Translations under genes and position numbers: made by a program | Part shown: positions 18,766 to 57,485 of the stretch, in pieces | Layout: each line of letters starts with the position of its first letter | Position numbering within the stretch: position 1 is the stretch's first letter | The notes under the pieces: generated by a model | Databases searched by the model: none | The model's input: the letters and a program-made list of their open reading frames with translations, nothing else | What the model was told of the DNA's origin: nothing | DNA from: Candidatus Shapirobacteria bacterium | GTDB lineage: Bacteria > Patescibacteriota > Microgenomatia > UBA12405 | Length of the DNA stretch: 64,000 nt | Reading direction: 5' to 3' | Assembly (NCBI GenBank): GCA_030698565.1 | Contig: JAUYJS010000008.1 | Span: 289,275 to 353,274, forward strand

Positions 18766-19794
18766 ATGACCAAAACTATTACAAAAAACATCCAATCTCA
18801 ATCGCAAATAATTATCTATAAAACAGAAACAGGCGAGACTAAAATTGATGTTCGTTTTGAAAATGAAAATGTATGGCTTACTCAAAACGCATTAGCGGAT
18901 CTCTTTCAAACAACAAAGCAAAACATAAGTCAGCACATCAAAAATATTTTTGAAGAAAAAGAGTTATTAGAAAATTCAACTGTAAAGAAACTCTTTACAG
19001 TTCAAAAAGAAGGTAACCGCGAAATAAAACGAGAAATAGATTATTACAACCTTGATCTGATTATTTCCGTTGGCTATCGTATCAAAAGCTCTATTGCCAC
19101 CGCATTTCGTCAGTGGGCTACTCTTCAACTTCGCGAATATATTGTTAAGGGTTTTGTTATGGACGACGAAAGATTAAAAAATCCCGATTTACCATTTGAT
19201 TATTTTGAAGAATTAACTCGTCGTATTACAGATATTCGTACATCTGAAAAACGATTTTATAGAAAAATTACCGATATTTATGCTACCAGCGTTGATTATG
19301 ATCCAACCGACGAAATAAGTATTCTCTTTTTTAAAACTGTCCAAAACAAAGTTCATTATGCCATTACCGGGAGTACTGCGGCGGAGATAATTGTCAGTAG
19401 GGTAGATAGTAAAAAACCAAATGTAGGTCTGACAAATTTTCGTGGTAGTAAACCAACCAAAGAAGAAGTTGTGATTGCTAAAAATTATTTGAGTGAGCAG
19501 GAGCTCTTGGTGTTAAATAATCTTGTTGAGCAATATTTAGTATTTGCCCAAGGACAGGCAATACAGAGAGTACCAATGTATATGGACGACTGGATAAATA
19601 AACTCAATGCTTTTTTGCAGATTAATAATAAAGATATTTTAAAAGATGCCGGTAAAGTCTCTCATGAATTGGCCATAGAAATAGCTGAAAAGAATTTTGA
19701 TGAATATAAAAAAAGTGAAGCAAAAAATATTAATAATGATTTTGATTCAGTCGCTCTGCACGCACTTGAAATAACCAAGAAAAAAAGAAGATAA
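18766..19794 (+). CDS. RhuM-family (virulence/Bro-N-like) protein
   Basis: N-terminus IIIYKTETGETKIDVRFENENVWLTQNALADLFQTTKQNISQHIKNIFEE matches the conserved RhuM-family start. Confidence 0.75.
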   Translation: MTKTITKNIQSQSQIIIYKTETGETKIDVRFENENVWLTQNALADLFQTTKQNISQHIKNIFEEKELLENSTVKKLFTVQKEGNREIKREIDYYNLDLIISVGYRIKSSIATAFRQWATLQLREYIVKGFVMDDERLKNPDLPFDYFEELTRRITDIRTSEKRFYRKITDIYATSVDYDPTDEISILFFKTVQNKVHYAITGSTAAEIIVSRVDSKKPNVGLTNFRGSKPTKEEVVIAKNYLSEQELLVLNNLVEQYLVFAQGQAIQRVPMYMDDWINKLNAFLQINNKDILKDAGKVSHELAIEIAEKNFDEYKKSEAKNINNDFDSVALHALEITKKKRR

Positions 19795-19847
19795 AAAATC
19801 CCTTTTATAATTTAGACGTAATAAATTCTGCTCTTCAGAACCAAAAA

Positions 19848-19873
19848 ATACCCCGCCGCAGCGGGGTATTTTA
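19848..19873. terminator. Bidirectional rho-independent terminator ATACCCCGC-CGCA-GCGGGGTAT, with an A-run on one side and a T-run on the other, between convergent genes
   Basis: 9-bp GC-rich perfect stem with a 4-nt loop and flanking AAAAA / TTTT. Confidence 0.7.
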
Positions 19874-19887
19874 ATTTCAATTCTTAT

Positions 19888-20571
19888 TTAGAATAATTTC
19901 TTAAAGAAATTCAATAATTTATTAAAGAATCCACCATCTTCCTGAGTAGCTACTGGAGTTGGAGTTGCTGGTTTTACTGGAGCAACTGTTACATTGGCTT
20001 TTTGTTGTGGAGCCACAGTCACATTTGCGTTTTTAGGAGCAGCTGGATTAACTTTTTCACTTGGCTTTACTGTATTTGGAGTGGTAACAGTTTTAGCTAC
20101 GACCGGTACTGCTCTATTAGCTGCAGCAACCACTCTTCCATTTCCACCAACAGTTACTGGCCATTCATTTGAAAAAGCACCTGGCATACAACCACTATTT
20201 GCTTTTACGGCAAAATAATATTTACCGGCAGGTAAACTTCTAATATCTACACTTCGGGAATTGCTGTCTCCAAAATTAGAAAGACCATAAATGTACTTTC
20301 CTGGTTGATTACCATAAGCAACTGTCCATGACGATGCCGAATCAACCTTATCCCATTTAAGTTCTACTTCACCAGTTTTAATATTTCTGGCAGAGTACAA
20401 CCAAGCCTTAGCTGGAGCAGTGTCATGACACTCACGATCTGGACCGGCTGGGGTAGAACCGTAAGCCAGGACAGAGGAAGCGTTGTTGGTTAACAACACA
20501 GCCGAAGCTACGCTCACCATTACTAAATAGGCAATACTTTTTACACATTTACTTTTGTTCATATTTTTCAA
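19888..20571 (-). CDS. Secreted protein with signal peptide, a beta-rich (FN3/Ig-like) domain, a tandem NVTVAP repeat and an amphipathic C-terminal tail
   Basis: N-terminal hydrophobic signal, tandem ANVTVAPQQK/ANVTVAPVKP repeats, and a PT-rich tail. The only long minus-strand gene in this part of the window. Confidence 0.6.
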   Translation of the reverse strand: MKNMNKSKCVKSIAYLVMVSVASAVLLTNNASSVLAYGSTPAGPDRECHDTAPAKAWLYSARNIKTGEVELKWDKVDSASSWTVAYGNQPGKYIYGLSNFGDSNSRSVDIRSLPAGKYYFAVKANSGCMPGAFSNEWPVTVGGNGRVVAAANRAVPVVAKTVTTPNTVKPSEKVNPAAPKNANVTVAPQQKANVTVAPVKPATPTPVATQEDGGFFNKLLNFFKKLF

Positions 20572-20668
20572 TAAATTATATTACTAATCGTATACATTAA
20601 AATTAAATTAAATTATAATCGATGTCAACAAGCAAATCCATGCTTTAATCCGTTTAAACTTAATAAAT

Positions 20669-21400
20669 ATGAAAGAAGAAAAAATAGGTATTTTGGGTTA
20701 TGGTCAAGTTGGCCAAGCCATAGCCAAATTTTACAAAGATCCAAAGGTAAAAGATATTAATCGCGACGATGGATTAATCGATGTAGACATTTTACATGTT
20801 TGCATTCCCTTTTCCGATCAATTTATTAGTCTTGTCCAAGAAGAAATAAAAAATTCTCACGCTAAATTAACTTTTATTCATTCTTCTGTCGCACCGGGCA
20901 CAACCCAGCAAATAGGGAAGACTGCTGTTCACAGTCCCATCCGTGGTGTCCATCCCAACTTATATGAAGGTATTCAGACTTTCACCAAATTTATTGGCGC
21001 TGACTCCAAAAAAATAGGTAAATTAGCCAAAAAACATTTAAAAAGTTTGGGTATAAAAAAAGTAAAAATTGCCTATCCCTCTGTAGCTACAGAATTAGGA
21101 AAACTTTTTGATACTACTTACTATGGTCTTTGTATTGCCTGGCATGCGGAAATGAAAAAAATTTGTGACCAATTCAAAGTAAGTTTTGACGATGCTGTCA
21201 CAGATTTTAATAAAACATACAATCAGGGTTACAAAAAATTAGGTAAAAAAAATGTTATCAGACCCGTTCTATTTTACCCTCAAGACAATGTAATTGGTGG
21301 TCATTGTATTATTCCCAACGCACATATGATCGACAAGTTTTTCAAAAGCAAAGCCATAGATTTAATTTTAAGTTACTCCAAAAAAGATGACAAAAAATAA
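20669..21400 (+). CDS. Short NAD-binding protein of the UDP-glucose/GDP-mannose dehydrogenase family (N-terminal and central parts only)
   Basis: Rossmann motif GILGYGQVGQAIA and a GGHCIIPN segment resembling the catalytic-Cys region GGxCxxKD. Only 243 aa. Confidence 0.4.
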   Translation: MKEEKIGILGYGQVGQAIAKFYKDPKVKDINRDDGLIDVDILHVCIPFSDQFISLVQEEIKNSHAKLTFIHSSVAPGTTQQIGKTAVHSPIRGVHPNLYEGIQTFTKFIGADSKKIGKLAKKHLKSLGIKKVKIAYPSVATELGKLFDTTYYGLCIAWHAEMKKICDQFKVSFDDAVTDFNKTYNQGYKKLGKKNVIRPVLFYPQDNVIGGHCIIPNAHMIDKFFKSKAIDLILSYSKKDDKK

Positions 21401-22352
21401 AATATTGGTTGTCATGATCCCTTGTTTCAACGAGGAAAAAACCTTAGCTACTGTCATAAATGCTATTCCCAAAAAAATCCCCCGTATTTCCAAAGTAAAA
21501 ATACTGGTAATCAACGACGGCTCGTCCGACGATTCAGTCAAAATCGCCAAGAAGTTAAAGGTCCATATTTTTTCCCACCCCATCAATCGTGGCTTAGGCC
21601 AAACATTTAGAGATGGAATTGAAAAATCTCTCAGACTCGGTGCCGATATTATCGTCAATATTGATGGCGACATGCAATTCAACCCCAAAGACATTACAAA
21701 ATTAATTAAACCAATCATTGAGGATAAATATAATTTCGTCACAGCTACTAGATACAAGAAATATTTAAAATACAATTTAAATGGGCGGGGAATAAAGAAT
21801 TTTGGTAATAAATTCTTTGCCTGGTTAATCAACAAAATTACAGGAAGTAATTACACCGATGTTTCTTGTGGATTTAGAGCTTATTCCCGCAAAGCCGCCA
21901 TGAAATTGCAATTGTTTGGTCATTTTACCTATACCCATGAGACGTTTTTAGATCTAATTCACAAGGGTTTTATAGCAATAGAGGTTCCTATAAAAGTCAG
22001 GCCCAAACGACAAAGTGGAGAATCGAGAATATCAAAAAATTTATATAAGTATGGCTATAGTGCCATAAAAATAATTGTTCGCGGTTTTCGGGACCATCAA
22101 CCACTCAGATTTTTTGGTATGCTTTCTGTCATCATCACATCAATCGGAGTTTTATTCGGATCGTTTTTAACGATCCACTGGATAATTACCGAATCACTTA
22201 CACCTTATAAAAGCTTTGGATTTATTGGTGGTTTTATGGTTGGAGTAGGTTTTTTGATGTTTATTCTCGCACTTTTAGCCGACATGCTAGGAAGAATCAA
22301 AGACACCCAGGAAGAAGTGTTGTATCAGTTGCGCAAAAATAATTTTAAATAA
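21387..22352 (+). CDS. GT2 glycosyltransferase, polyprenyl-phosphate sugar synthase type (DPM1/GtrB-like) with two C-terminal TM helices
   Basis: ILVVMIPCFNEE...INDGSSDDS and a DxD-containing GT-A fold, with a C-terminal hydrophobic pair. Confidence 0.8.
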   Translation: MTKNKILVVMIPCFNEEKTLATVINAIPKKIPRISKVKILVINDGSSDDSVKIAKKLKVHIFSHPINRGLGQTFRDGIEKSLRLGADIIVNIDGDMQFNPKDITKLIKPIIEDKYNFVTATRYKKYLKYNLNGRGIKNFGNKFFAWLINKITGSNYTDVSCGFRAYSRKAAMKLQLFGHFTYTHETFLDLIHKGFIAIEVPIKVRPKRQSGESRISKNLYKYGYSAIKIIVRGFRDHQPLRFFGMLSVIITSIGVLFGSFLTIHWIITESLTPYKSFGFIGGFMVGVGFLMFILALLADMLGRIKDTQEEVLYQLRKNNFK

Positions 22353-22355
22353 ATT

Positions 22356-23591
22356 ATGTCACTTAGTTCGCTATTATTTCGCAATCAATCCACCCGCCAA
22401 ACTCTAATCAAAAACACCTTTTGGCTCGGACTTATCGAATTTTTTTCCAAGATAATAATGTTTTTTGTCACCATTCTTATAGTCCGCTCTTTTGGCCCAA
22501 ATGAGTTTGGTAAGCTCAATCTAGCCATGTCCTATGCAGCCATGATTATGGTTTTTTCTGATCTTGGATTAAATACTATTACCGCCCGAGAAATTGCCAG
22601 GCACAAAGAAGAAAAAGACAAATATCTATCCAATATTTTTACGATTAGATTATTGGTTTCTGTTGTAATCTGGCTTGGTACTTTTTTATTTTCAGCCAAC
22701 AAATTGGTTTTATTAGTAGTAACTTTCAATTTGGTTCAAAATTTCTCTTCTCTTCTTTGTGCTGCCTTTTCTGGTTTAGAAGCCATGCAATACAATTTTA
22801 TTTCGCGGTTTATTTATTATTTCGGTATTTTGGCATCAGTTATTGCTGTTACTCGAGTACAAGGTAGTCCGGAGAAACTAATCACCTTTTATATCATTGC
22901 TTCGTTTATTACTTTTATTCTAACTTTCTCGATGCTTAAGTTTAAAAAAATAAATTTAAAACTTACTATCGACCTTTTATTTTGGAAAAAAATATTAAAA
23001 GAAACACTTCCACTTCTGGGTATGACCATAACCGGAGTTATCTATTTAAATATCGATTCTATTTTGATTGGTCGCTATTTTGGACCGGAGCAAGTTGGTC
23101 TCTACCAATCCGCCTACAAAATACTTTTTGCTTTTCAAAGCATAAATATTATTAATAGTTCTTTGTTTCCACGAATTTCTTCTTTAATCGCCGAAAAAAA
23201 ATATATTATTTTAAATAAACTAAATTTCATTGTCGTTGCCGTTTCACTTTTCGTTTTAATTCCTCTTGGTATTTTTATCTCCATTTTTGCCAGTCAAATA
23301 ATGAAAATTATTTACGGAACAGTTTATGTTTCCGCCAGTCCAGCGCTAATTTTCCTTATTTGGAGCGGCATAATTTTTTATTTTAGAAATTTTATAAATA
23401 ATTTACTAATTGCCAATAATAAACAAAAACAAGTTTTTTATTCCATCCTCCTCGGGACTACAATAAATGTAATGTTCAATCTTTTTATTACACCTAGATT
23501 CAATTATATTTACGCTTCGATGGCAATGGTTCTTTCTGAAATAATTATTCTTACTTATTCGACTTTATTGTATGTCAAAAATAAAAAGTAA
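22356..23591 (+). CDS. Wzx-type oligosaccharide flippase (MOP superfamily polysaccharide biosynthesis protein)
   Basis: 411 aa with about 12 predicted TM segments, placed inside a glycan locus. Confidence 0.7.
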   Translation: MSLSSLLFRNQSTRQTLIKNTFWLGLIEFFSKIIMFFVTILIVRSFGPNEFGKLNLAMSYAAMIMVFSDLGLNTITAREIARHKEEKDKYLSNIFTIRLLVSVVIWLGTFLFSANKLVLLVVTFNLVQNFSSLLCAAFSGLEAMQYNFISRFIYYFGILASVIAVTRVQGSPEKLITFYIIASFITFILTFSMLKFKKINLKLTIDLLFWKKILKETLPLLGMTITGVIYLNIDSILIGRYFGPEQVGLYQSAYKILFAFQSINIINSSLFPRISSLIAEKKYIILNKLNFIVVAVSLFVLIPLGIFISIFASQIMKIIYGTVYVSASPALIFLIWSGIIFYFRNFINNLLIANNKQKQVFYSILLGTTINVMFNLFITPRFNYIYASMAMVLSEIIILTYSTLLYVKNKK

Positions 23592-24666
23592 ATTATACAT
23601 AATTATTGGCACCAAGGCTCAACTAATAAAGATGGCCCCAATAATGATTGAACTAAAAAAAAGGAAAATAGACTACACTTATATTTCTACAGGCCAGCAC
23701 CAAGAAACAATAAAGGATTTAATTTCTACATTTCAAATAAAAAAACCAGACCATACTCTTTATCAAGGCAGAGACATAACAAAGATATGGCAAATGTTGA
23801 TTTGGTCCATTGGTTGTATTAAAAATGTTTTGATTAATAGAAAAAAATATTTTCCCAAAAAAAATGGTATTGTGCTCGTTCATGGCGATACTTATTCAAC
23901 AGTTCTCGGGGCTATAATCGGAAAAATATGTCAACAAAAAGTAGCTTATGTCGAAGCTGGTCTTCGCTCTTTTGATATATTTAACCCTTTCCCGGAAGAA
24001 ATTTTTCGTCTTATCACATCTCAACTTGCAGACATTCATTTTTGTCCCGGTGACTTCGCTTACAAAAATTCACAAAGATATAAGGGTATTAAAATTAATA
24101 CTCAAATAAACACTCTTTATGATTCACTAAAATTAGTCATAAAGAATTTAAATAAAATTGAAGTCGATATACCACAGGAAAGTTATTGTATTGTATCGAT
24201 TCATAGATTTGAAAACATTTTTAATAAAAAAGTTTTTTCAAAAATTATTGGACAAATAGAATTTATATCAAAATCAAAGAAAGTACTGTTTATTCTTCAC
24301 AAACCAACAAAAGAGAAATTAATTGAGTATGGATTATTAGTAAAGCTTGAAGACAATCAAAATATTGAATTAAGACCCCGGTATGATTATTTTAGGTTTA
24401 TTAAATTACTTAACAGTGCCGATTTTATAGTTACCGACGGAGGGAGTAATCAAGAAGAGTGCTATTATTTAGGCAAACCCTGTCTATTAATGAGAAAAAC
24501 TACAGAAAGGAAAGAGGGTATTGGGAGTAATGTCTTGGTTTCTAATTATAGAAATAAAATAATAAAAAAGTTTATATTAAATATATATAGTAAGCAAAAT
24601 AAATTTATTAAACACAAATCATCTCCAAGCGAGGTTATTGTTAACAGTATTCATCAAAAACATTAA
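23572..24666 (+). CDS. UDP-N-acetylglucosamine 2-epimerase-like (WecB family)
   Basis: IIGTKAQLIKMAPI, STGQHQE, VLVHGDTYSTVLGA and YVEAGLRSFD align with WecB motifs. Confidence 0.75.
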   Translation: MSKIKSKLYIIIGTKAQLIKMAPIMIELKKRKIDYTYISTGQHQETIKDLISTFQIKKPDHTLYQGRDITKIWQMLIWSIGCIKNVLINRKKYFPKKNGIVLVHGDTYSTVLGAIIGKICQQKVAYVEAGLRSFDIFNPFPEEIFRLITSQLADIHFCPGDFAYKNSQRYKGIKINTQINTLYDSLKLVIKNLNKIEVDIPQESYCIVSIHRFENIFNKKVFSKIIGQIEFISKSKKVLFILHKPTKEKLIEYGLLVKLEDNQNIELRPRYDYFRFIKLLNSADFIVTDGGSNQEECYYLGKPCLLMRKTTERKEGIGSNVLVSNYRNKIIKKFILNIYSKQNKFIKHKSSPSEVIVNSIHQKH

Positions 24667-24681
24667 TTATTAATAAAAAAA

Positions 24682-25419
24682 ATGAAACTAAAAGAAATAA
24701 AAAAATTTTATGAATGGTTCCATTCAAACAAAATTTTAAATCCAAAAGCCGATCTGATGCAGGCCCAAAGATGTGATTATCTTCGATTCCTAATTAAAAA
24801 TATCACGGGTAAATTTCTGGTTATTGGTTGTGGATCAGAAGAAGAAATGGGTATTCTAAATAAAAATTGCGACGGAATCGGGATTGATATTTCCGAAGAA
24901 GCTGTAAAAAAATCAAAGGCAAAATATCCTCAATTTGAATATTATGTAGCTAATGCAACCAACTTACATTTTGAAAAAAACAGTTTTGATTGTGTAATTT
25001 GTAGCGAGGTAATTGAGCATATTCCGGATGATGAAAAATTTCTTTCTGAGGTAAAAAGAGTTCTAAAAAATAACGGTATTTTTATTGTTACTACACCCAA
25101 CTGGTTGAGTTGGTATGGATTAGCGAGAAAGATAGCAGAGGGATTATTCAAAAAACCGGTTACTTCAGACGATCAACCAATAGATAATTGGTCGACTCCA
25201 TCTAGTCTAAAAAGAAAGTTGAAAAAATATGGTTTTGAAATCAATTTTTTAAGAGGACTTTGGTATTTTCCACCTACTGGAAAAGGAAAAAATCAAATAC
25301 CATGGAGAATAACTTTACCAATAGCCAAATTATTTTATCCATTTGAAGTTTTGTTCAGAAGAATCCTCCCTTGGTATGGTCATATGATTTTATTTAAAAC
25401 CAGGCTAATTAAAAGTTAA
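24682..25419 (+). CDS. Class I SAM-dependent methyltransferase
   Basis: VIGCGSEEE (motif I), DCVICSEVIEH and NNGIFIVTTPN. Confidence 0.75.
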   Translation: MKLKEIKKFYEWFHSNKILNPKADLMQAQRCDYLRFLIKNITGKFLVIGCGSEEEMGILNKNCDGIGIDISEEAVKKSKAKYPQFEYYVANATNLHFEKNSFDCVICSEVIEHIPDDEKFLSEVKRVLKNNGIFIVTTPNWLSWYGLARKIAEGLFKKPVTSDDQPIDNWSTPSSLKRKLKKYGFEINFLRGLWYFPPTGKGKNQIPWRITLPIAKLFYPFEVLFRRILPWYGHMILFKTRLIKS

Positions 25420-25458
25420 AAAACATTAAAAAATATTTTTAAAATTGATTTATGAAAT

Positions 25459-27036
25459 ATGAAGAAAATTGATACGTTTGGAAAATACATAATCTTCTTC
25501 TATATTATGTTTTTACTCTCCATTCTAACATTAATAAATATTTCATATATAAATCTATACGCAAGTTCCCCAGACGAGGTAGGAGAGAAAATTACTATAA
25601 GTAATTTAGCCAAGAATCATTTTTTACCAATCGAAAAGTTCTCAGAGCTCAATCAAAAATATAAAAATGTTTTTTCCACAAGGGGTACAGTGGTAAATAA
25701 TGACGGTCTTCTTGTTCCTTATAAATCACTTGGCAATACTTACATTCTATCAAGTTATTTAACTTTAATAGATGAACTTATAAACGTTGAAAAAATATTT
25801 ATTATATTTCATGCCATATCAATTCTTATATTTTTAATATATTTAATACAAGCAGTTCAATTATTTACAAGAAAAGTTAATATTATAGATAAATTGTTTC
25901 TAATTACATTATTCTTTGCTTTAAATCTATACTTAGATAGAATAATAAATTTTTATAGTCTTTCAATCTTTATAAGCTTTTACTACTTATTAAAATGGAT
26001 AAAAAACAATACAAGAGGCTATGATGTAAATCTTTTTTGTTCATCTTTAGCTATCAGCACGGCAGTCTTTATTAGATACGAATTTATTGTAAATTTGATA
26101 ATTATATTTCTAATTTTTTGTTACCTTATAATTTATAAGAAAAAAAGTCCGAACATATTATTATTTTTTTTAGTCCCATCTGTAATAGCTTTGTGTATTT
26201 TAGTTTCTAATAATAAATTTTATGACGGCTATTTAAATTTTAGCTATAGTATGGGACACAAGAAAGCGGGGCCATTTATAAGCAATATCAGTATTTACGA
26301 GAGAATATATAAATTTTTATTTTTAGTTGGTATTAAACCCATTAATGCAATTAGAAATACTTACTACTACATAATCGCACTATTCCCCATAATTTTTATT
26401 CCGGCATTAATTAATATTAAATCCATTAAAAAATACCCCATTTTTTCAATTACAGTTTTTGCAATTTGTATATACTTAATCACGTATTATGGGAGTAATC
26501 CAACATTTTACGGGTTTCAAGAAATCACCATTATTTCTTCTTATGTTCGTTATTTTTCACCAATATATTTATTTTTATTTATGTTTGCATCCCCACTGTA
26601 TATAAAAATATTTAAAAACATTCCATATCTATTCAAACTGATGATTATTATGTTATTTACTAGCCTTTTTATAATTTCATTCACTACTCAAAAAATAAAT
26701 GATTATCAAAATAATCAAAAATACACTTATTATCTAAAAAATAATATCAAAAAAACAATTCCATTAAATTCAACTATTTTTTCAAATTATTGGGACAAGT
26801 TGCTTTATAACGATTACACCGTTGCAACTTTAAGTAATAAAATCAATTCCCTTTATGAATATTTTTATATAATGAAGCAATACTATCTAGATGATACAAA
26901 TAGGATGGTGTATTATCTTCCAAAAGACGATACGGAAAAAAGTGAATTCAATAAATTTTTAAACAATAACTCAGACATTGCATGCACAGAAATTAATATG
27001 CTAAATGCATGTCAGCTAAAAGAAAATGAAAAATGA
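25459..27036 (+). CDS. AT-rich polytopic membrane protein (candidate glycan polymerase or GT-C-type transferase)
   Basis: 525 aa, highly hydrophobic. Local GC is clearly lower than its neighbours. It lies inside the glycopolymer locus. Confidence 0.55.
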   Translation: MKKIDTFGKYIIFFYIMFLLSILTLINISYINLYASSPDEVGEKITISNLAKNHFLPIEKFSELNQKYKNVFSTRGTVVNNDGLLVPYKSLGNTYILSSYLTLIDELINVEKIFIIFHAISILIFLIYLIQAVQLFTRKVNIIDKLFLITLFFALNLYLDRIINFYSLSIFISFYYLLKWIKNNTRGYDVNLFCSSLAISTAVFIRYEFIVNLIIIFLIFCYLIIYKKKSPNILLFFLVPSVIALCILVSNNKFYDGYLNFSYSMGHKKAGPFISNISIYERIYKFLFLVGIKPINAIRNTYYYIIALFPIIFIPALINIKSIKKYPIFSITVFAICIYLITYYGSNPTFYGFQEITIISSYVRYFSPIYLFLFMFASPLYIKIFKNIPYLFKLMIIMLFTSLFIISFTTQKINDYQNNQKYTYYLKNNIKKTIPLNSTIFSNYWDKLLYNDYTVATLSNKINSLYEYFYIMKQYYLDDTNRMVYYLPKDDTEKSEFNKFLNNNSDIACTEINMLNACQLKENEK

Positions 27037-27322
27037 AATAATCATAATTTTATTATTTTTTATTAATATATTTATTCCTGGATTCTCGATTTCTTTTGCA
27101 CTATTCGATAAAAACATGGACATCTTGGAAAGAATTGGATTCTCGATATTCGTTTCAATATCAATCGTATCAATGATCGGGTTCATTATTAATATAATAT
27201 ATAATTTAAAAATTAATTTTATCAATATAACGTTAATTTCTGTATCCATTGTCATAATAAGTATATTCACAATTTTAGGAAAAAAAATAAAACAGTCATT
27301 TATAAAAAATAAACCAATATAA
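27026..27322 (+). CDS. Small 3-TM membrane protein (GtrA-like?)
   Basis: 98-aa hydrophobic ORF overlapping the end of the previous gene. Confidence 0.3.
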   Translation: MKNEIIIILLFFINIFIPGFSISFALFDKNMDILERIGFSIFVSISIVSMIGFIINIIYNLKINFINITLISVSIVIISIFTILGKKIKQSFIKNKPI

Positions 27323-27324
27323 AT

Positions 27325-28473
27325 ATGATAGAGTTATTCATTTTTTTAAATAAATTATTAGTAAAAATAATCCCAAGCATATTTATTTGGTATCCTGTTA
27401 ATTACAAAAAAGTATCATTCGTAAACAAACATTATTCAGACAGCAATCTTTTACTCACGGCTAAAATGCTATTAAAGCAAAATCCTGAAATAAAGATTCA
27501 ATATATTACAAACAACCCACGAAAATCTACAATTGCAAAACAAATCATATTTTATTTCAAATTATTAAACAGCAGGGTTATAGTTACGACACACGGTCCT
27601 GTAATTAAAACTAAAAAAAATATCTCTCTTGAATTATGGCATGGTATGCCAATAAAAGGGATGAACTTAATGGATAACTTAAAAGAAAAACATACTTCAT
27701 TTTCAAACATTGATCATTTAAATAGTTACTCTCAATTTTTTAATACTGTAATGAATGCTTGTTTTGGTGTGGAAGGAAAAAAATACATCATTCTCGGTAG
27801 CCCTCAAAACGATTTATTGTTCGATTCTAAAAATAAAGAAAAAATATTTCGCTTATTTAGAATTAAAAAAAACCAGAAATATGTAATTTATATGCCGACT
27901 TTTCGAGATAATATAAAAAATTACCAAAATTATCAAAATTTTGTTAAAAATTTAGGATTTTATAAATTTGATCTTCAAATTTTTAATAAATTTTTAATTA
28001 AAAATAACTTAAAACTTATTTTGAAGCCCCATCCAAACGATAATAATTTATGGAAGGAATTCTTTGAAGAACTAAAACTCTCAAATATACTCTTACTTAC
28101 AGAAGAATATTTAATAAAAAACAACCTAGAATTATACGAAATATTAGGTTTGTCCGACCTACTAATTACAGATTATTCCTCAGTCTATGTTGATTATTTG
28201 TTAATAGATAAACCAGTAATTTTTGTTCCAACAGATATTGATCAATATCGAAAAATCAGAACCTTACTTCTTGAACCATATGACTTTTGGGCTCCTGGGC
28301 CTAAAGTATATGATCAAAAAAAACTTGAAGAAGAAATAGTTAAATCTTTAAAAGATGTTAAATATTATCAAGAAGAACGTAATATTCTTAAAAATATTTT
28401 TCATAAATATCAAGATAATAAGTCAACAGAAAGGGTTGTTAATCATATAAATCTTTTATTAAGATCAAAATGA
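27325..28473 (+). CDS. CDP-glycerol glycerophosphotransferase family protein (TagB/TagF-like)
   Basis: C-terminal catalytic-domain motifs ELWHGMPIKG and ITDYSSVYVDYLLIDKPVIFVPTDIDQY. Confidence 0.7.
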   Translation: MIELFIFLNKLLVKIIPSIFIWYPVNYKKVSFVNKHYSDSNLLLTAKMLLKQNPEIKIQYITNNPRKSTIAKQIIFYFKLLNSRVIVTTHGPVIKTKKNISLELWHGMPIKGMNLMDNLKEKHTSFSNIDHLNSYSQFFNTVMNACFGVEGKKYIILGSPQNDLLFDSKNKEKIFRLFRIKKNQKYVIYMPTFRDNIKNYQNYQNFVKNLGFYKFDLQIFNKFLIKNNLKLILKPHPNDNNLWKEFFEELKLSNILLLTEEYLIKNNLELYEILGLSDLLITDYSSVYVDYLLIDKPVIFVPTDIDQYRKIRTLLLEPYDFWAPGPKVYDQKKLEEEIVKSLKDVKYYQEERNILKNIFHKYQDNKSTERVVNHINLLLRSK

Positions 28474-28541
28474 AAAAAACAATAATAAAATATCAAACAC
28501 ATATAGAAATAAAACATATAATTTTAAGTAAAATTTAGTAT

Positions 28542-30362
28542 ATGTGTGGAATATCCGGTATTATTTCTAATAAAGAAATTTATAGGTTGAATGAACGAAT
28601 AATTGCCATGGTTAGTTCGCAACACCATAGAGGTCCAGACAATCAAGGTTACATCACACTTAATAGGGGATGTGTTTTTGGTCACAATAGGTTAAAAATT
28701 ATCGATTTATCAAATTCAGCAAACCAACCATTTACTTCAAATTCTGGAAATATAATAATCGTATTCAATGGAGAAATTTATAATTATCAAGCCATAAAAA
28801 AAGAACTGATTTTAGAATATGAATTTCACACCAAATCAGATACCGAGGTTATGGCTGCGGCCATAGAAACTAAAGGTTTGGATTGGTTTTTAAAAATGTC
28901 AAATGGAATTTTTTCTATAGCTATATATGACAAGTCTAAAAGAAATATTACCTTAGTTAGAGATAGAAGTGGAATCAAGCCCCTTTTTTATTGTGTTGTA
29001 GATAATATTCTTATTTTTGCCTCAGAAATAAAAGCCATACTTGCAAGTGGTTTAGTGAATGGAGAAATGGAATATTGTGCTATTGATGATTATTTTGCTT
29101 TTAGACACGTTAGGGAACCATACACTTTTTTCAAAAATATATATTGCGTTGAAAGTGCAACAAAAATTATTTTTCCAATCGATAATATTAGTAATTATTG
29201 TAAATCTCGATATTGGGAGATACCTCAGCTAAATTTTCAAAAAAAATACAACGAGTTGGATTGCATCGAGGAGTTAAATAGAAAATTATCCAATACTGTA
29301 AAGATGCAAATGGTGGCTGATGTTCCAGTTGGGACATTATTATCAGGAGGATTGGATTCAAGCCTAATTACCGCCCTTGCTTCTTATAAAACGAACACGT
29401 TAGACACTTTTTCTATTGGATTTAAAGAAAAGGAATACAACGAATTTGAGTATTCCAGACTGGTCGCTAAGAATTTTAAAACCAACCACTCAGAATACAT
29501 CTTATCAGAGCAAGATTATTTTAAACAATTAACCGTATTAACTAAAAGTAAAGATGCTCCATTAGGGGTACCCAACGAAATTCCACTATATGAACTTAGT
29601 AAAAAAATTTCGGGTTTCGACAAAGTAATTCTTTCTGGCGAAGGAGCGGATGAAATATTTTTTGGATATGGACGCATATTTAGGTCACCTTATGTGTTTG
29701 AAAATTCCGAAAATAAAATAAAAACATCATTTTATGATTATTTCTCTAAAAGATATGAATATATACCAAGGGACTTGAGAGATAGATTTTTATCTGTGCC
29801 GCTAGATTTACGAAAAAAATTTGATAAAAATTTAAAAAAAGAATTTATAAATTATAAAAATGAAGAAAATGTTTTTAGATTTTTTTTAAATTATCACATA
29901 AAAGAATTACTTATTAGATTGGACTACACCACTATGCAAAGTTCTTTGGAGAGTAGGGTACCATTTCTTGATCACACTCTAATTGATTTCGTAAGTAAAA
30001 ACATACCTAATGAATTGAAGCTTAAATTTAATTTAAATAAAAATAAGTTTAAATGTAAAAATTTATCAGAAGAAGAAATTAGTGAAGTATATGATACTCC
30101 GAAGTACATACTAAAGAAGGTCGCAGAAAGATATTTGCCCCACGACATAATATATCGAAAAAAAATTGGTTTCCCTGTCCCCTTACAATGGTGGGACAAG
30201 TCTCTCCAAAAAACTGCACAAATTTTAAAAAATAGAAATTGGCTTAATGTGGATATTTCTGTAGAGGAGATAGTAAATAATATGTCAGGTCAAGCTTTAT
30301 GGATGTTTATTTGTCTAGCTATTTTCGAAGATAATTATTTTAATAAAAATTACAGGTGGTAA
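28542..30362 (+). CDS. asnB: Asparagine synthetase B-family glutamine amidotransferase
   Basis: N-terminal MCGISGII nucleophile-Cys Ntn domain and a PP-loop SGGLDSS. Confidence 0.85.
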   Translation: MCGISGIISNKEIYRLNERIIAMVSSQHHRGPDNQGYITLNRGCVFGHNRLKIIDLSNSANQPFTSNSGNIIIVFNGEIYNYQAIKKELILEYEFHTKSDTEVMAAAIETKGLDWFLKMSNGIFSIAIYDKSKRNITLVRDRSGIKPLFYCVVDNILIFASEIKAILASGLVNGEMEYCAIDDYFAFRHVREPYTFFKNIYCVESATKIIFPIDNISNYCKSRYWEIPQLNFQKKYNELDCIEELNRKLSNTVKMQMVADVPVGTLLSGGLDSSLITALASYKTNTLDTFSIGFKEKEYNEFEYSRLVAKNFKTNHSEYILSEQDYFKQLTVLTKSKDAPLGVPNEIPLYELSKKISGFDKVILSGEGADEIFFGYGRIFRSPYVFENSENKIKTSFYDYFSKRYEYIPRDLRDRFLSVPLDLRKKFDKNLKKEFINYKNEENVFRFFLNYHIKELLIRLDYTTMQSSLESRVPFLDHTLIDFVSKNIPNELKLKFNLNKNKFKCKNLSEEEISEVYDTPKYILKKVAERYLPHDIIYRKKIGFPVPLQWWDKSLQKTAQILKNRNWLNVDISVEEIVNNMSGQALWMFICLAIFEDNYFNKNYRW

Positions 30363-30371
30363 TATAAAAAT

Positions 30372-30797
30372 ATGAAAAAAATAATAGGATACACTGCTGG
30401 TGTTTATGACTTATTTCATATAGGACACCTTAATCTTTTGCGTAATGCAAAAGGTTTGTGTGATTATTTAATTGTTGGAGTATCTTCGGACATATTAGTT
30501 TCATATAAAAATAAAAAAGCAGTAATTCCATTCAGTGAAAGAATCGAAATTGTCAGGGCGATTAAATATGTAGATTCGGTAGTACCTCAGGAAAATATGG
30601 ATAAATTTGAAATGTGGAAAAAAGTAAAGTTTGACGTAATGTTTGTAGGAGACGATTGGTATAACACAGACAAATGGAAAGACATCGAGGAACAGTTTGA
30701 AAAAGTTGGAGTAAAAATTGTATATTTTCCTTATACGAAAGGTACTAGCTCTACATTAATAAACAAGACATTAGAGGATTTAAGAAGTAAAAAGTGA
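30372..30797 (+). CDS. tagD: Glycerol-3-phosphate cytidylyltransferase (TagD-like)
   Basis: GYTAGVYDLFHIGHLNLL (HxGH cytidylyltransferase motif), about 140 aa. Confidence 0.85.
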   Translation: MKKIIGYTAGVYDLFHIGHLNLLRNAKGLCDYLIVGVSSDILVSYKNKKAVIPFSERIEIVRAIKYVDSVVPQENMDKFEMWKKVKFDVMFVGDDWYNTDKWKDIEEQFEKVGVKIVYFPYTKGTSSTLINKTLEDLRSKK

Positions 30798-30810
30798 CAA
30801 TCTTTCTCTT

Positions 30811-32793
30811 TTGTGTCACATTAATATTATAATTATCAAACATATGAAAGAAACCCAAACTAAAACAATAAAAATAATTTTAATTGCTTCCGGAATTCTA
30901 CTTATTTTTGGAGTAGTCGGGTTTTTAACATATCAATATTGGTCTCCTTTAGGTAAAAAAATAACAACTTCAATGAAGCTTCCTGGGGCCAAAGAAGTGG
31001 CTAACATCGACACCACTAGCCCTACGGGTGGTTTCAAACTTCCTAGTCAAGTCATTACCTCTCAAGCCGCTCGTTTTCCCCTCGACATTAAATCTTCCAA
31101 TATTGAAAATATTCATGCCATTATCAAATTCAAAAAAGGGCCAAAGGAAATCAGATTGGGTATTCGGGGTGATGAAAAAGATAAGTATGTCTACAAACCC
31201 TTTTATCAAACATTTATCCAAGATGCCCAAAAATGGGAACAAATCAAGGGAACTAGTAATATTTTGTATCAAAGAAATAAAAAATATGATTCTATCGTTG
31301 ATTTAATCAACACTCCTCCAGACAAAGAAAAAATTGGCGCCTATTTTGTCAATGCCGAAACTTTAGTAAAAAATACTCCTACAAAAATCGAACCCAATAC
31401 TATTATTAACACTTATCTCCGGGGTACCCATACTTTTTATGTTTGGGTCGATTCCGCTCCGTTTACTTTAAAGGTTAGTAAACAAGACATAAATATGTAT
31501 GATGGAGAAGATAAATTGAAAATAGCTGTTTATAAAGAAAATAAAAAAATAACTGAAAAAGAAATTCCTGATGATGGCATGGCAGGCAAGACTTTACTTA
31601 AAAGAGACTCTCAAACCGAAAAGGTTGAATTGACCGATATTACCCCTGGGATTTATCGGGTAGATATTGTTTCAGACAGTAAAGGTGGTGACACTCTTAT
31701 TACCCGTATCGAGACAAATCAACAAAAAATTATTGCCAAAAGGCTGTTTATTTTAGACAAGAAACCGAGCAATATATACACCGACGCCACCAATCTTACT
31801 GCTCAAATTGCCCACAAAGGATATTTGGATTCCATCAAAATCAATGATAAATATGAAATTAAAATTCTCGAAGTCGGCAAAAAAGTAACTACTGATGTAG
31901 AAGCCCTAACTAAATCAAACTATAATAGTAAAAATCTCTACAAAATAAGTTCGGCCAAAAACGATATCGTCTATACAAGCGACAGTTATTTTGCCTTTTC
32001 ACCAGACCAGTTTTTTAATCCGGAAATAATCAAGAAAACAGAACTAAATACCGTTGAAAGTTTGGATGATATTGATTATATCCTCACTACTTTGACACCT
32101 GCTCGTCAGGAAGGGGATTGGCTTGTGTCTGAAATTAATTTCGACCCAAAAGATTTAAATATTACTGGCAACAAATTATATTTTTCCCTGGAAAGTCCTG
32201 AATTAGCTAAATTCGGTGGAGAACTAGAAATAGAAAGCTTCGAAGTTAATATCGATTACACCGGCGCTTTAGAAAAATTTGTCAAAGCACCAATTATTAA
32301 TCCCACACCAGAAAAGAGAGGTTTTGTTGATAAAATAATGGATTTTTTTAAAAATATACTTAAAAAGAACCAGCCAATTACTTCGACAAATACCCCGACT
32401 CCCACAACCACCCTTGCACTAAAAATAACACCAACAGCCATAGCCACACCCAGCACAAAAATTACCCCCACAATTACCGCCACACCAAGTTCCAAATTAA
32501 CACCAACCTCCACCACCAATAAATCCGTAAAAATTAAAGTTCTAAACGCCGGGGCGTCCGCTGGCGCCGCCGCTCGTTATGCCACACTATTGAAGACTGC
32601 TGGTTACTCGAACACCGAAGCCGGAAATTATGATGGCAGCGATATAAAAAATTGCACAATCACTTATCCGGAAAAATATATTTCAACAGCTACTGATATT
32701 GAAAAAATTTTAAAAACCGAATACAAAACCGTAAACCGGGCGATTAATTATAAGGACGATCAAATTACTATCAATATCGGCGCCATTAATTAA
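30811..32793 (+). CDS. Membrane-anchored extracellular protein with a Thr/Pro-rich linker and a C-terminal LytR_C-like domain
   Basis: N-terminal TM, large ectodomain, TPTPTTT...TPTITATP linker, and C-terminal VKIKVLNAGASAGAAARYATLLKTAGY (LytR_C-like). Confidence 0.55.
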   Translation: MCHINIIIIKHMKETQTKTIKIILIASGILLIFGVVGFLTYQYWSPLGKKITTSMKLPGAKEVANIDTTSPTGGFKLPSQVITSQAARFPLDIKSSNIENIHAIIKFKKGPKEIRLGIRGDEKDKYVYKPFYQTFIQDAQKWEQIKGTSNILYQRNKKYDSIVDLINTPPDKEKIGAYFVNAETLVKNTPTKIEPNTIINTYLRGTHTFYVWVDSAPFTLKVSKQDINMYDGEDKLKIAVYKENKKITEKEIPDDGMAGKTLLKRDSQTEKVELTDITPGIYRVDIVSDSKGGDTLITRIETNQQKIIAKRLFILDKKPSNIYTDATNLTAQIAHKGYLDSIKINDKYEIKILEVGKKVTTDVEALTKSNYNSKNLYKISSAKNDIVYTSDSYFAFSPDQFFNPEIIKKTELNTVESLDDIDYILTTLTPARQEGDWLVSEINFDPKDLNITGNKLYFSLESPELAKFGGELEIESFEVNIDYTGALEKFVKAPIINPTPEKRGFVDKIMDFFKNILKKNQPITSTNTPTPTTTLALKITPTAIATPSTKITPTITATPSSKLTPTSTTNKSVKIKVLNAGASAGAAARYATLLKTAGYSNTEAGNYDGSDIKNCTITYPEKYISTATDIEKILKTEYKTVNRAINYKDDQITINIGAIN

Positions 32794-32801
32794 TAGGAAA
32801 A

Positions 32802-33773
32802 ATGAAAATTGTTATCATTCTGCTAAAGCAATTATTTACATTTTCACTGGTTTTTTATTTGATTCTTTTTCTTTTGGAAACACTTTTTCCCGGTTTTGTC
32901 TCTGATGTTTTTTCATTGAATTGGGTTCTGGGAGGCGTACTGATATTGGGGATAATCTCGGCTTTTTTACCCGAAGATGAAGATCAAACCGAACAAGACA
33001 ATCAAAACAATAAGCCAGCCATTTTTGATTATGTTTTTGCAGTTGCTTTGGGAATAATTGGCGCCACTTTGATTTTCTGGAAAGTTAAATTAGACAATGA
33101 ATATCTTCACTGGTTAATCAGTGCCTTATCGGGTCTTTTAATTATGTTTATGGGAGTAATCGTTTTAATAATGCCCGACCAAGACGAAGAAGCTGAAATA
33201 ATAGTTGAAAGCGAAGCTGATTGGAAATATCAAATTAAAAATTTAAATTTTAAAAAATTATTAGTTTCCAAGATTCAATTGCCAGTCAGTTTTGTAGTTA
33301 TTTTTATTCTTCTGACCAGTTTGTTTATTATCCAAAAACCAAAAACCAAATTGGTGGTTCAAAATATTAACCCAGTTACACCCATACCCAATGTTTCCGA
33401 AACCCCAACTCCTACTCAAAAAGAATTACCTCCGGTTGACCCTGCACTGAAAATATTTGTTATCAATGGCGGCGCCGAAAAAGGCGAGGCCAAAAGAATA
33501 GCTTCAATTTTTACCAAAAAAGGTTATAAAAACGTCGAGGCGAAAGACAGCCCAAAGCAAGACTATAAAGATACTATAATTGAATTTACCGCCGCAGAAT
33601 CTGCCCAAGCCGATATTGTCGAAGATGTTATGATGGAACAATATTTTATTGTTAATAGGTCGCCACTAGCTACCGACTCAGCCCAAATAAATGTCATACT
33701 TGGTGCTCAAGCCATGCCCGAAGACGATTCTTTGCCCAATCCCGACGAAAATTTCGATTTCTTTTTCAACTAA
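32802..33773 (+). CDS. Polytopic membrane protein with a Thr/Pro linker and a C-terminal LytR_C-like domain
   Basis: Four N-terminal TM segments, a TPTPTQKELPP linker, and C-terminal LKIFVINGGAEKGEAKRIASIFTKKGY. Confidence 0.55.
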   Translation: MKIVIILLKQLFTFSLVFYLILFLLETLFPGFVSDVFSLNWVLGGVLILGIISAFLPEDEDQTEQDNQNNKPAIFDYVFAVALGIIGATLIFWKVKLDNEYLHWLISALSGLLIMFMGVIVLIMPDQDEEAEIIVESEADWKYQIKNLNFKKLLVSKIQLPVSFVVIFILLTSLFIIQKPKTKLVVQNINPVTPIPNVSETPTPTQKELPPVDPALKIFVINGGAEKGEAKRIASIFTKKGYKNVEAKDSPKQDYKDTIIEFTAAESAQADIVEDVMMEQYFIVNRSPLATDSAQINVILGAQAMPEDDSLPNPDENFDFFFN

Positions 33774-33780
33774 AAAATAA

Positions 33781-33854
33781 CGCCCTCTACAACCTGTCAA
33801 TTTTTTTAAAAAATCACATCCACATTGTAGGGGCGATTCATGAATCGCCCCTAC
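33781..33854. repeat. REP family B cluster: degenerate half-site CGCCCTCTACAACC (33781-33794) plus a perfect 28-bp palindrome GTAGGGGCG-ATTCATGAAT-CGCCCCTAC (33827-33854)
   Basis: Same 9+10+9 architecture and 5' GTAG as the family A REPs. A CGCCCCTACAATG half-site recurs at 45025-45037 beside the RAYT gene. Confidence 0.5.
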
Positions 33855-34601
33855 CTGTTTGTTACCTGTAATCTGAAAAATGCAATTTGTTTTTACACAG
33901 ACGGGTCGCGACCTGTAAAACAAATTCGTCGTTTTTGGGATGAAAATCAACCGTACGATAAAATCGTACGGTTAAAATTAATTGCATCCGATGGCAAAAT
34001 ACGTTTTACTGACTGTGCTGACACAGAAACAATTTTTCGTTTAATTCAATCAATTCCTTCACCTAAGGCCGAACCGTTTAAATTATGGTTGGCCAAAGTT
34101 GGCCACGAAAGGTTAAAAGAAATTGTAGATCCAGAAATTTCCCTAAACAGAGCTAGGGAAAATTGGAAATCAATGGGACATTCGACGAAATGGATTGAAC
34201 AAAGAATGCGAGGTCAAGAAATAAGAAATAAATTAACTGATTATTGGGCTAACCATAAAATTGAGGAGCAAGAAGAATTTGCCATTCTCACAAACATAAT
34301 TCACAAAGAATGGACTGGTCTAACAGTCAAAGAACATAAAAATTTAAAAAATCTCAAAGGTCATAATTTACGAGATAATATGACCGACGCTGAATTACTA
34401 TTTACTTCCCTGGCCGAACTGACTACACACAAAATAGCGGAGAATGAAAAAGCAATTGGTTTTAATAAAAATGCCATTTCTGCCCAAAAAGGTGGCCGTT
34501 ATACCAAAAAAGCTAAGGAAAATTTTGAAAAATTAACCAACAGTAAAGTAATAAATAAACAAAACTATTTACCATCAAAAAACATTAAAAAGATTAAATA
34601 A
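33840..34601 (+). CDS. DinD-like / Bro-N-family DNA-damage-inducible protein
   Basis: C-terminal half aligns with E. coli DinD (KNLKGHNLRDNMTDAELLFTSLAELTT vs KGLKKNQKILDHMGSTELAANLFRATQT). The ATG lies inside the REP-B loop. Confidence 0.5.
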   Translation: MNRPYLFVTCNLKNAICFYTDGSRPVKQIRRFWDENQPYDKIVRLKLIASDGKIRFTDCADTETIFRLIQSIPSPKAEPFKLWLAKVGHERLKEIVDPEISLNRARENWKSMGHSTKWIEQRMRGQEIRNKLTDYWANHKIEEQEEFAILTNIIHKEWTGLTVKEHKNLKNLKGHNLRDNMTDAELLFTSLAELTTHKIAENEKAIGFNKNAISAQKGGRYTKKAKENFEKLTNSKVINKQNYLPSKNIKKIK

Positions 34602-57166: not shown

Positions 57167-57224
57167 CAATCCCTGCAAAATTTTCCACAATAGAGTGTTC
57201 TTTAATGTGCAAATAGTTTTATTA

Positions 57225-57410
57225 ACAAGAGCGTGTGGTCCTGCTTTGCAGGAATACGAGGAGGGAGTCCCTTGCTTTGCAAGGGAAATCGGACCTTCAC
57301 AATATATGTGAAGAGTTATCTGCGGAAACTCCCAGGTGGCAACTGCCACCTAAATGTCTTTTTTAAAACTTTGGAGTAATCCAAAACCTAAAGAGAAGAC
57401 AATCAGTTAC
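57225..57410 (+). ncRNA. Candidate glmS ribozyme (GlcN6P-responsive self-cleaving riboswitch) in the glmS leader
   Basis: 319-nt non-coding gap upstream of glmS. Its segments ACGAGGAGGGAG ... CUGCGGAAACUCCCAGG ... UAAAUGUCUUUUUUAAAACUUUGGAGUAAUCCAAAACCUAAAGAGAAGACAAUCA parallel B. subtilis glmS core segments (GACGAGGAUGGAGG, CGGCGGAUGCCUCCCGG, UAAGGAUUUCUUCAAACCAAGGGGGUGACUCCUUGAACAAAGAGAAAUCA). The comparison is recalled from memory. Confidence 0.55.
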
Positions 57411-57485
57411 TATTTTCACCCAAGAACATCAGTCTTTAGCTTTACTGTGTATTTAATTATTGTAAAACTAACGGACCAATGTCAT

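Follow-up and report, generated by a model that had tools for sequence, protein, structure and literature searches.

In the classical pathway for wall teichoic acid, TagD makes cytidine diphosphate (CDP)-glycerol, and a TagF-like enzyme polymerises poly(glycerol phosphate) on a linkage unit of N-acetylglucosamine and N-acetylmannosamine (GlcNAc-ManNAc). A WecB-type epimerase provides uridine diphosphate (UDP)-ManNAc for that unit, and the polymer is then exported and attached to peptidoglycan. Firmicutes teichoic acids are known to be glycosylated extracellularly by sets of a family 2 glycosyltransferase (GT2), a flippase and a GT-C glycosyltransferase (PMC8035078), and the decorations on EPA (enterococcal polysaccharide antigen) in Enterococcus faecalis are a precedent for Wzx-dependent teichoic acids (PMC7188991). 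Bacteria of the CPR (candidate phyla radiation, also called Patescibacteria) are assumed in one paper to use rhamnose polymers instead of teichoic acids (PMC11809585), and a literature search found no description of teichoic-acid-type polymers in them. The subject here is a cluster of glycan genes in a 64-kb stretch of the genome of Candidatus Shapirobacteria, an uncultivated, ultra-small CPR bacterium; this whole stretch is called the window, and its 48 main open reading frames (ORFs) were scanned with Pfam. CPR bacteria live attached to other cells, which makes the surface central to their biology, and we know of no chemical information on their surface polymers. The cluster gives this group a concrete set of genes on which the idea of a phosphodiester-containing surface glycan can be tested.

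The ORFs listed in the original prediction are all present on the plus strand at the coordinates it gave. The cluster ORFs of that strand are tightly packed or overlapping and are bounded by hairpins at 19845-19872 and 33827-33854 (Table 1). We favour, with modest confidence, reading them as a composite envelope-glycan operon, in which extracytoplasmic glycosylation of the GT2/Wzx/GT-C kind would be combined with a cytoplasmic CDP-alcohol/TagF branch and a number of tailoring enzymes. Judged from the genes, the product would be a phosphodiester-containing, teichoic-acid-like glycan made by a non-canonical pathway. Domains were assigned with Pfam and NCBIfam profiles, the NCBIfam scores being judged by their equivalog cut-offs. 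The only relative available for comparison of the core is a 318-kb contig of a second Shapirobacteria (L002, the sister locus), which carries this cluster, with its order of genes unchanged, in another chromosomal neighbourhood, where an LCP gene adjoins it and a Bac_transf gene lies about 5 kb upstream.

Table 1. Features of the glycan cluster and its borders; the last column gives the amino acid identity to the counterpart in the sister locus L002
Feature	Position	Strand	Evidence or remark	Identity (%)
RhuM-family gene	18766-19794	+	PF13310, E 5.6e-106; between dnaJ and the glycan cluster	
Terminator-like hairpin, bidirectional, 12-bp stem	19845-19872		left edge of cluster region	
Secreted protein, 227 aa, signal peptide, Pro/Thr-rich tail	19888-20571	-	divergently oriented; no Pfam hit	42
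Best promoter-like site, TATACA-17-TATAAT	20591-20619	+	consensus match only; upstream of the first plus-strand gene	
Truncated NDP-sugar-dehydrogenase-like protein, 243 aa	20669-21400	+	Rossmann GxGxxG, central domain and GGHC motif kept	62
Membrane-anchored GT2, polyprenyl-phosphate sugar synthase type (like AglJ, ArnC, PpgS, PgfS)	21387-22352	+	PF00535, 94.7 bits	51
Wzx/MOP-family flippase	22356-23591	+	PF01943, 118 bits; PF13440, 70.7 bits	51
WecB/MnaA-type UDP-GlcNAc 2-epimerase	23572-24666	+	PF02350, 181 bits; first gene of the low-GC block	65
S-adenosylmethionine-dependent methyltransferase (Methyltransf_11)	24682-25419	+	PF08241	66
GT-C-fold glycosyltransferase, 525 aa, GC 0.243, formerly "hypothetical"	25459-27036	+	family profiles, AlphaFold model, Foldseek	71
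Small membrane protein, 98 aa, three hydrophobic helices	27026-27322	+	weak resemblance to DUF1616	63
Single-module TagF/TagB-family CDP-alcohol phosphotransferase, 382 aa	27325-28473	+	PF04464, 198.4 bits	76
AsnB-type glutamine-dependent amidotransferase	28542-30362	+	TIGR01536, 405 bits; N-terminal Cys2 present; missing in L002	
TagD-related cytidylyltransferase of a distinct clade (TagD')	30372-30797	+	PF01467; HxGH and KxK motifs kept	47
Envelope protein, 660 aa	30811-32793	+	N-terminal hydrophobic anchor stretch, large external region, Pro/Thr-rich linker, C-terminal LytR_C	39
Second LytR_C membrane protein	32802-33773	+	Pro/Thr-rich linker, LytR_C	39
Strong hairpin, 12-bp stem, 7 GC pairs	33827-33854	+	likely end of the main transcription unit	
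Phage-type gene, inserted	33840-34601	+	phrog_15286, E 7.7e-69; weak Bro-N match; outside the pathway	
Second multi-pass membrane protein, 460 aa	34681-36063	+	hhalign probability 97.3%, E 2.5e-11 for the GT-C superfamily	49

Enzymes of the cluster and a proposed route

One gene of the locus had been described as encoding a very AT-rich membrane protein. The description is accurate but incomplete, since by its profiles and modelled fold the 525-residue product is a GT-C-fold glycosyltransferase of a very divergent subfamily that had no prior annotation. A word-based search found three homologues, and a profile search of 1.84 billion cluster representatives found 532. Pfam PMT_2 is matched by 39 of the 53 family members that were aligned, and others match Glyco_transf_22, STT3 or PMT. 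The AlphaFold model built from these 53 sequences has a predicted local distance difference test (pLDDT) score of 89 and a predicted template modelling (pTM) score of 0.88, and it replaces an earlier model from 4 sequences that was unusable (pLDDT 45). The best matches of the model in the PDB, as found with Foldseek, are all GT-C enzymes: STT3, ArnT (TM 0.55), DPY19, PglB, AftA and AglB. Invariant across the family are Pro38-Asp39, Arg206 and Arg364. The first of these lies immediately behind the first transmembrane helix, in the first extracytoplasmic loop, which is where GT-C enzymes have their catalytic acidic residue (see the review PMC8035078).

Because the AT-rich gene encodes a GT-C, the locus points to extracytoplasmic glycosylation by the GT2/Wzx/GT-C route and not to a classical, ABC-exported poly(glycerol phosphate). 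Orphan membrane genes of high AT content in glycan loci usually encode a Wzy polymerase, and this identity was also considered for the 525-residue protein; it was rejected on account of the GT-C fold and the profile matches. A small membrane protein that had been overlooked lies directly downstream, and its gene is translationally coupled to that of the GT-C upstream and to the TagF-like gene downstream. In an identical Logan contig, the public gene call places a 79-residue gene on the minus strand at 27016-27270, opposite this ORF, but the conserved frame is that of the 98-residue protein on the plus strand, since the copy in the sister locus has the same length and was called on the plus strand. 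Another multi-pass membrane protein, of 460 residues, probably belongs to the GT-C superfamily on the strength of its profile match, and has a conserved PLGYDxGLY motif just behind its first hydrophobic stretch. In the sister locus, its homologue comes straight after the LytR_C genes.

The second pillar of the proposed operon is the TagF-like phosphotransferase. It had been named a TagF-like CDP-glycerol glycerophosphotransferase, the protein already has a name at NCBI, and its membership in the family is genuine. The catalytic histidine motifs WHGMPIK and KPHP align with those of TagF (3l7i and 3l7m) and TarL (8va1), and since their histidines, H106 and H236, are in addition invariant in the 14 closest homologues, the protein is a credible candidate for an active CDP-alcohol phosphotransferase. 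Its NCBIfam scores for TarL, TarF and TarB are 78, 67 and 48 bits, for cut-offs of 500-1000, so that it is the equivalog of none of them. TagF-like genes of the same clade, 47-54% identical, adjoin or lie near PMT_2/GT-C genes on other, independent contigs, namely L006/L007 (with L006 10001-12957), L008 (305-3288), L009 (1353-3533; Patescibacteria) and L075 (3543-11300), the last from a metagenome-assembled genome (MAG) of the DPANN archaea (Ca. ainarchaeum). About 65 Bacillota loci showed no neighbour of this kind. In addition, a protein from a Woesearchaeota MAG (L088) is 54% identical to the TagF-like protein of the window over 78% of its length.

The sugar side of the pathway is formed by the genes further upstream, and the names proposed for most of them held up on profile searches (Table 1). 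The GT2, whose C-terminus has two hydrophobic stretches in keeping with a polyprenyl-phosphate sugar synthase, has its best NCBIfam matches in AglJ, PpgS, ArnC and PgfS, each under its equivalog cut-off (TIGR04182, 122.8 bits against 325). The flippase, the WecB-like epimerase (TIGR00236, 201 bits, under the cut-off of 210) and the methyltransferase were likewise assigned correctly, as was the AsnB-like amidotransferase further downstream. A methyltransferase gene also adjoins GT-C homologues in L002, in L004 and on the contig P0003. For the UDP-sugar dehydrogenase-like protein at the start of the cluster, only a weak family similarity stands. It is truncated and lacks the C-terminal domain, it scores 24.8 bits with TIGR03026 for a cut-off of 189.8 and matches PF00984 with an E value of 0.0045, and its top PDB match is a dehydrogenase of UDP-N-acetylmannosaminuronic acid (UDP-ManNAcA) at an E value of 0.02.

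Taken together, these genes suggest the following route. The membrane-anchored GT2 would load a sugar onto polyprenyl phosphate. This sugar is probably an N-acetyl-hexosamine that comes by way of the WecB epimerase, and it may be methylated. The TagD-related cytidylyltransferase would produce a CDP-activated alcohol, most likely CDP-glycerol, from which the single-module TagF/TagB-family transferase would attach a phospho-alcohol to the lipid-linked glycan, and the AsnB-type enzyme would amidate some carboxyl group. The Wzx-type flippase would then carry the lipid-linked unit across the membrane, and outside the cell the 525-residue GT-C, with the 98-residue protein as its partner, would pass it to an envelope acceptor. 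The order of the steps is itself provisional, and the acceptor may be peptidoglycan, the Pro/Thr-rich envelope proteins or a lipid.

Several points weigh against this account. All of the functional assignments rest on homology. The 48 ORFs of the window include no initiating phosphoglycosyltransferase (Bac_transf or Glycos_transf_4), no Wzy-type polymerase and no LCP ligase. From sequence, single and repeated addition by the TagF-like enzyme look alike, and its best NCBIfam matches, TarL, TarF and TarB, all score far under their cut-offs. The cytidylyltransferase has only a putative substrate, since it scores below the TagD cut-off, the dehydrogenase-like protein may be non-functional, and the flippase could, from its sequence, act either on a polyprenyl-phosphate-linked sugar or on a repeat unit linked to polyprenyl diphosphate. 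Finally, a literature search found no chemically characterised envelope polymer from CPR bacteria. What is new is a fold and a probable role for a "hypothetical" family of about 530 cluster representatives, the recurrent TagF/GT-C neighbourhood in CPR-type contigs, and a separate, uncharacterised TagD' clade linked to AsnB-type amidotransferases. Every one of the enzyme families is already known, so the advance is incremental unless the coupling of TagF with GT-C, or a new CDP-donor, is demonstrated.

Composition and descent of the AT-rich core

The dip in base composition that had been noticed around 25.4-28.5 kb is real, both by sliding-window content of guanine and cytosine (GC) and by GC at third codon positions (GC3), and the window is thus not uniform. 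GC is 0.23-0.25 at 25.5-28.5 kb, compared to about 0.36 elsewhere in the window. In 1-kb sections, it is 0.224-0.25 between 25.25 and 28 kb, for a window mean of 0.348. Every section below 0.28 sits within 23.75-28.5 kb, with a minimum of 0.224, and there is no second dip of this kind in the window. The decrease is present at first, second and third codon positions. The seven genes from WecB through TagD' have the lowest GC and GC3 of the 48 ORFs (Mann-Whitney p about 1e-6), their GC z-scores range from -1.6 to -5.3, and of all genes in the window the TagF-like one has the smallest GC3, 0.198, the mean being 0.302. Membrane-protein composition by itself does not account for the dip, because the GT-C gene has a GC of 0.243 and the three other multi-pass membrane proteins of the window have 0.307-0.313.

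The low GC content might mean that the core is a genomic island acquired recently, or a serotype-like cassette that is hypervariable and confined to this strain. Besides the composition itself, there are mobile-type genes nearby (the RhuM-family and phrog_15286 genes), the chromosomal flanks differ between the two Shapirobacteria, and one segment, AsnB with TagD', has been swapped. However, the sister locus has the same gene order and the same dip (0.24-0.26 compared to 0.30-0.34), and its similarity to the window is highest in the core: 63-76% identity for the core compared to 39-51% for most other cluster genes, a ranking within the cluster and not one against genome-wide identity. Since the core is the best conserved part of the cluster and the dip is shared, it is neither hypervariable nor private to this genome, and the suggestion of hypervariability is contradicted by the one relative available. 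Searches for repeats and transfer RNA (tRNA) genes showed neither a long repeat nor a tRNA gene at the sides of the low-GC block; the full 64 kb has no tRNA gene at all, and the ORFs that were scanned contained neither integrase nor transposase domains. The RhuM-family gene and the Bro-N-like gene were also considered as matching island borders, a pairing that was rejected: the two are mutually unrelated, and the latter lies inside the conserved cluster. A recent island is therefore very improbable, low GC being a long-standing and shared feature of the glycan-specific genes in the core.

Horizontal acquisition, which had been proposed for part of the cassette, is supported only for the segment with AsnB and TagD' and not for the remainder. 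Downstream of TagF, the window has AsnB and TagD', and the sister locus and an unrelated contig (L005) have TagD and a TylF-type methyltransferase; this is the only demonstrable exchange of modules. The order TagF-AsnB-TagD' recurs in a Wzx-type polysaccharide locus of a Bacteroidales MAG (L011, 9968-13470; identities 45, 48 and 65%), and in Paenibacillus (L025 and L031, with L031 851-6322), in which a TPR-GT4-TagF polymerase contains the TagF domain. In all three hosts, CPR, Bacteroidales and Paenibacillaceae, this triad (27325-30797 in the window) has a lower GC than the DNA around it. Across these phyla, TagD' keeps 65-74% identity, compared to 47% identity to the TagD of the sister Shapirobacteria. 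Such recurrence of a low-GC triad across phyla is as expected for an old, laterally moving module.

The cytidylyltransferase of the window had been called TagD, a name that could not be kept. It scores 96.5 bits with the TagD equivalog (TIGR01518, cut-off 165.4), and it is 42% identical to B. subtilis TagD and 35-42% to canonical TagDs. It falls in a separate clade with proteins from a Dojkabacteria MAG (55% identity), the Bacteroidales MAG (65%) and a Paenibacillaceae genome (74%), the members of which have two insertions in common and all fall short of the cut-off with 84.7-97.4 bits. The sister locus carries a true TagD (169.2 bits, 63% identical to the B. subtilis protein). A CDP-glycerol-derived polyol-phosphate polymer had been deduced from the pairing of TagD with TagF; a genuine TagF-family enzyme in the window and a true TagD in the relative agree with this, and the window's own TagD' does not. 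The TagD of the relative is a true one, and its TagF-like protein is 76% identical to that of the window; we infer from this that CDP-glycerol is nevertheless the most likely donor in the window as well. In Paenibacillaceae, a TagD' gene is found together with a canonical TagD about 10 kb away, which hints that the two clades may not be redundant. A CDP-glucitol cytidylyltransferase of Campylobacter jejuni was tried as a comparison for TagD' and was set aside, as it belongs to a different family, PF01128.

A bolder interpretation, which we regard as improbable, is that the TagF-like transferase and the GT-C belong to a single and undescribed pathway. A sugar bearing a phospho-alcohol would be assembled on the polyprenyl carrier in the cytoplasm and flipped, and the GT-C would then transfer it whole to envelope proteins or to the wall; the TagF/GT-C module would be common to ultra-small CPR bacteria and DPANN archaea. 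In the form found in the window, the CDP-activated donor produced by AsnB and TagD' would not be CDP-glycerol but, for instance, an amidated acid-alcohol like glyceramide phosphate. A literature search for gene clusters of glyceramide phosphate gave nothing usable.

Envelope proteins and surrounding genes

Three envelope proteins accompany the enzymes. The two proteins with LytR_C domains had been recognised correctly, and PF13399 is their only Pfam match; the LCP catalytic domain (PF03816) is missing from both. The larger one probably starts at the ATG at 30844, and a scan of genome contigs with this protein found no relative. The third, the divergently oriented secreted protein, occupies the same position in the sister locus and may be a glycosylation substrate or an envelope component. 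A similar amphipathic motif occurs twice, as GFFNKLLNFFKKLF at the end of the secreted protein (19888-20571, minus strand) and as FVDKIMDFFKNILKK just ahead of the Pro/Thr-rich linker of the 660-residue protein (30811-32793, plus strand), and it may be a shared anchoring or sorting element.

These proteins raise the question of whether the cluster serves protein O-glycosylation. In such a system, the GT2 would make a polyprenyl-phosphate-linked sugar, the PMT_2-like GT-Cs would glycosylate the Pro/Thr/Ser-rich linkers of the three envelope proteins, and the TagF-like enzyme would add a phospho-alcohol cap. The PMT_2-like family of the GT-C agrees with this, as do the best NCBIfam match of the GT2, AglJ, which is an enzyme of archaeal S-layer glycosylation, and the Pro/Thr-rich stretches of three adjacent envelope proteins that are all also found in the sister locus. 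Related sets of TagF, GT2, Wzx and GT-C even occur in the MAG of a DPANN archaeon (L075), an organism expected to lack peptidoglycan. However, Pro/Thr-rich linkers are widespread in envelope proteins, GT-Cs of the PMT_2 type also act on teichoic acids and wall polysaccharides (PMC8035078, Table 2), and taxonomic labels derived from MAGs may reflect mis-binning. Protein O-glycosylation is unlikely in our judgement, and the composite glycan operon is preferred.

The cluster lies among housekeeping genes: hrcA-grpE-dnaK-dnaJ are found upstream of it, and downstream come short nusA and infB, then pnp, the RNase J gene, a number of aminoacyl-tRNA synthetase genes, ftsK, a sortase gene, yceG and glmS. 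Promoter-like sites are no more numerous in the region than expected from shuffling, so the site at 20591-20619 counts as weak evidence. The phrog_15286 gene separates the second LytR_C gene from that of the 460-residue GT-C-like protein, is missing in the sister locus, and has its start ATG in the loop of the 33827-33854 hairpin.

Other envelope genes of the window are those of a DUF2298 membrane protein (102-2216, plus strand), a family which we assume to be GT-C-like, and of a FemAB-family peptidyltransferase (4140-5180, plus strand). The sortase is preceded by a 712-residue protein without a Pfam match (52704-55570, plus strand). The DUF2298, FemAB-family and sortase genes fit a Gram-positive-like envelope. 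Two further observations concern the right part of the window. A glmS ribozyme/riboswitch (57219-57411, plus strand; RF00234, 60.9 bits, E 1.4e-11) is found directly upstream of the region coding for GlmS and overlaps the start of the ORF at 57354-59258, and a 190-residue protein (60447-61019, plus strand) has a Cys-rich region that matches Pacifastin_I (E 2.3e-7) and VWC (E 2e-5), domains typical of animals.

Comparison with known systems

The wall teichoic acid pathway of B. subtilis and Staphylococcus aureus is the natural first comparison, as the locus had originally been proposed to make a teichoic-acid-like wall glycopolymer. What stands of this proposal is an envelope glycopolymer locus with a TagF-family enzyme. 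The likeness consists of the PF04464 transferase with both histidine motifs, the adjacent TagD-related cytidylyltransferase and the epimerase of the MnaA/WecB type, and, in the sister locus, of the true TagD and a neighbouring LCP gene. Among the 48 ORFs of the window, however, Pfam found neither TagO (PF00953) nor TagA (PF03808), no protein with an ABC2_membrane or ABC_tran domain that could form a TagGH exporter, which is replaced by the Wzx/MOP flippase, and no LCP ligase domain (PF03816).

A classical teichoic acid could still be made if the other genes were elsewhere in the genome and the GT2 and GT-C merely decorated the polymer, in the manner of the extracellular glycosylation known from Firmicutes. 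Beyond the missing components, this is hard to reconcile with the TagF-like enzyme itself, a single module of 382 residues that resembles the primases TagB and TarF, without the additional N-terminal part that the polymerases TagF and TarL have, whose chains are 583-729 residues long. The cytidylyltransferase is of another clade and falls short of the TagD cut-off, the same TagF clade is found in heteropolysaccharide loci of the Wzx type (L011) and in a locus of the ABC/Wzt type (L089), and the host is a CPR bacterium. Production of a classical wall teichoic acid is, in our judgement, distinctly improbable, and the composite, non-canonical operon is preferred.

The TagF-like capsule polymerases and the glycerol-phosphate capsule or O-antigen loci (Cps3D, PDB 8qoy; L011 and L031) share the TagF clade, at 39-45% identity, and the order of the low-GC triad. 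They differ in that L011 and L031 have multi-domain polymerases of the GT4/TPR kind or the usual Wzx heteropolysaccharide sets, without a GT-C alongside. Another comparison is offered by the Wzx-dependent repeat-unit teichoic acids, such as the EPA decorations of E. faecalis and pneumococcal teichoic acid, in which a lipid carrier likewise serves for the assembly of units that contain polyol phosphate, and a Wzx-type protein flips them (PMC7188991). Among its 48 scanned ORFs, the window has no Wzy-like polymerase or initiating transferase, unlike these systems, and its two large membrane proteins are GT-C-like. EPA also differs in its use of LicD-type ribitol-phosphate transferases and TarI.

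The last group comprises the multi-component transmembrane glycosylation systems, such as GacI/GacJ/GacK/GacL of Streptococcus pyogenes, CsbB/GtcA/YfhO, GtrA/B/C and ArnC/ArnT. In the Gac system, GacH is an extracellular enzyme of the LtaS type, whereas the phospho-alcohol of the window would derive from a cytoplasmic CDP-alcohol through the TagF-family enzyme. The GT-C of the window is also very divergent, its GT2 has a membrane anchor of its own, and the 98-residue protein is likened to GacJ and GtrA without shown homology. What the cluster and these systems have in common is the combination, in one cluster, of a GT2, a Wzx-type flippase (as GacK), a GT-C and a small three-helix protein (as GacJ), and, in the case of the Gac system, a glycerol-phosphate-type modification (as by GacH) within the same glycan system.

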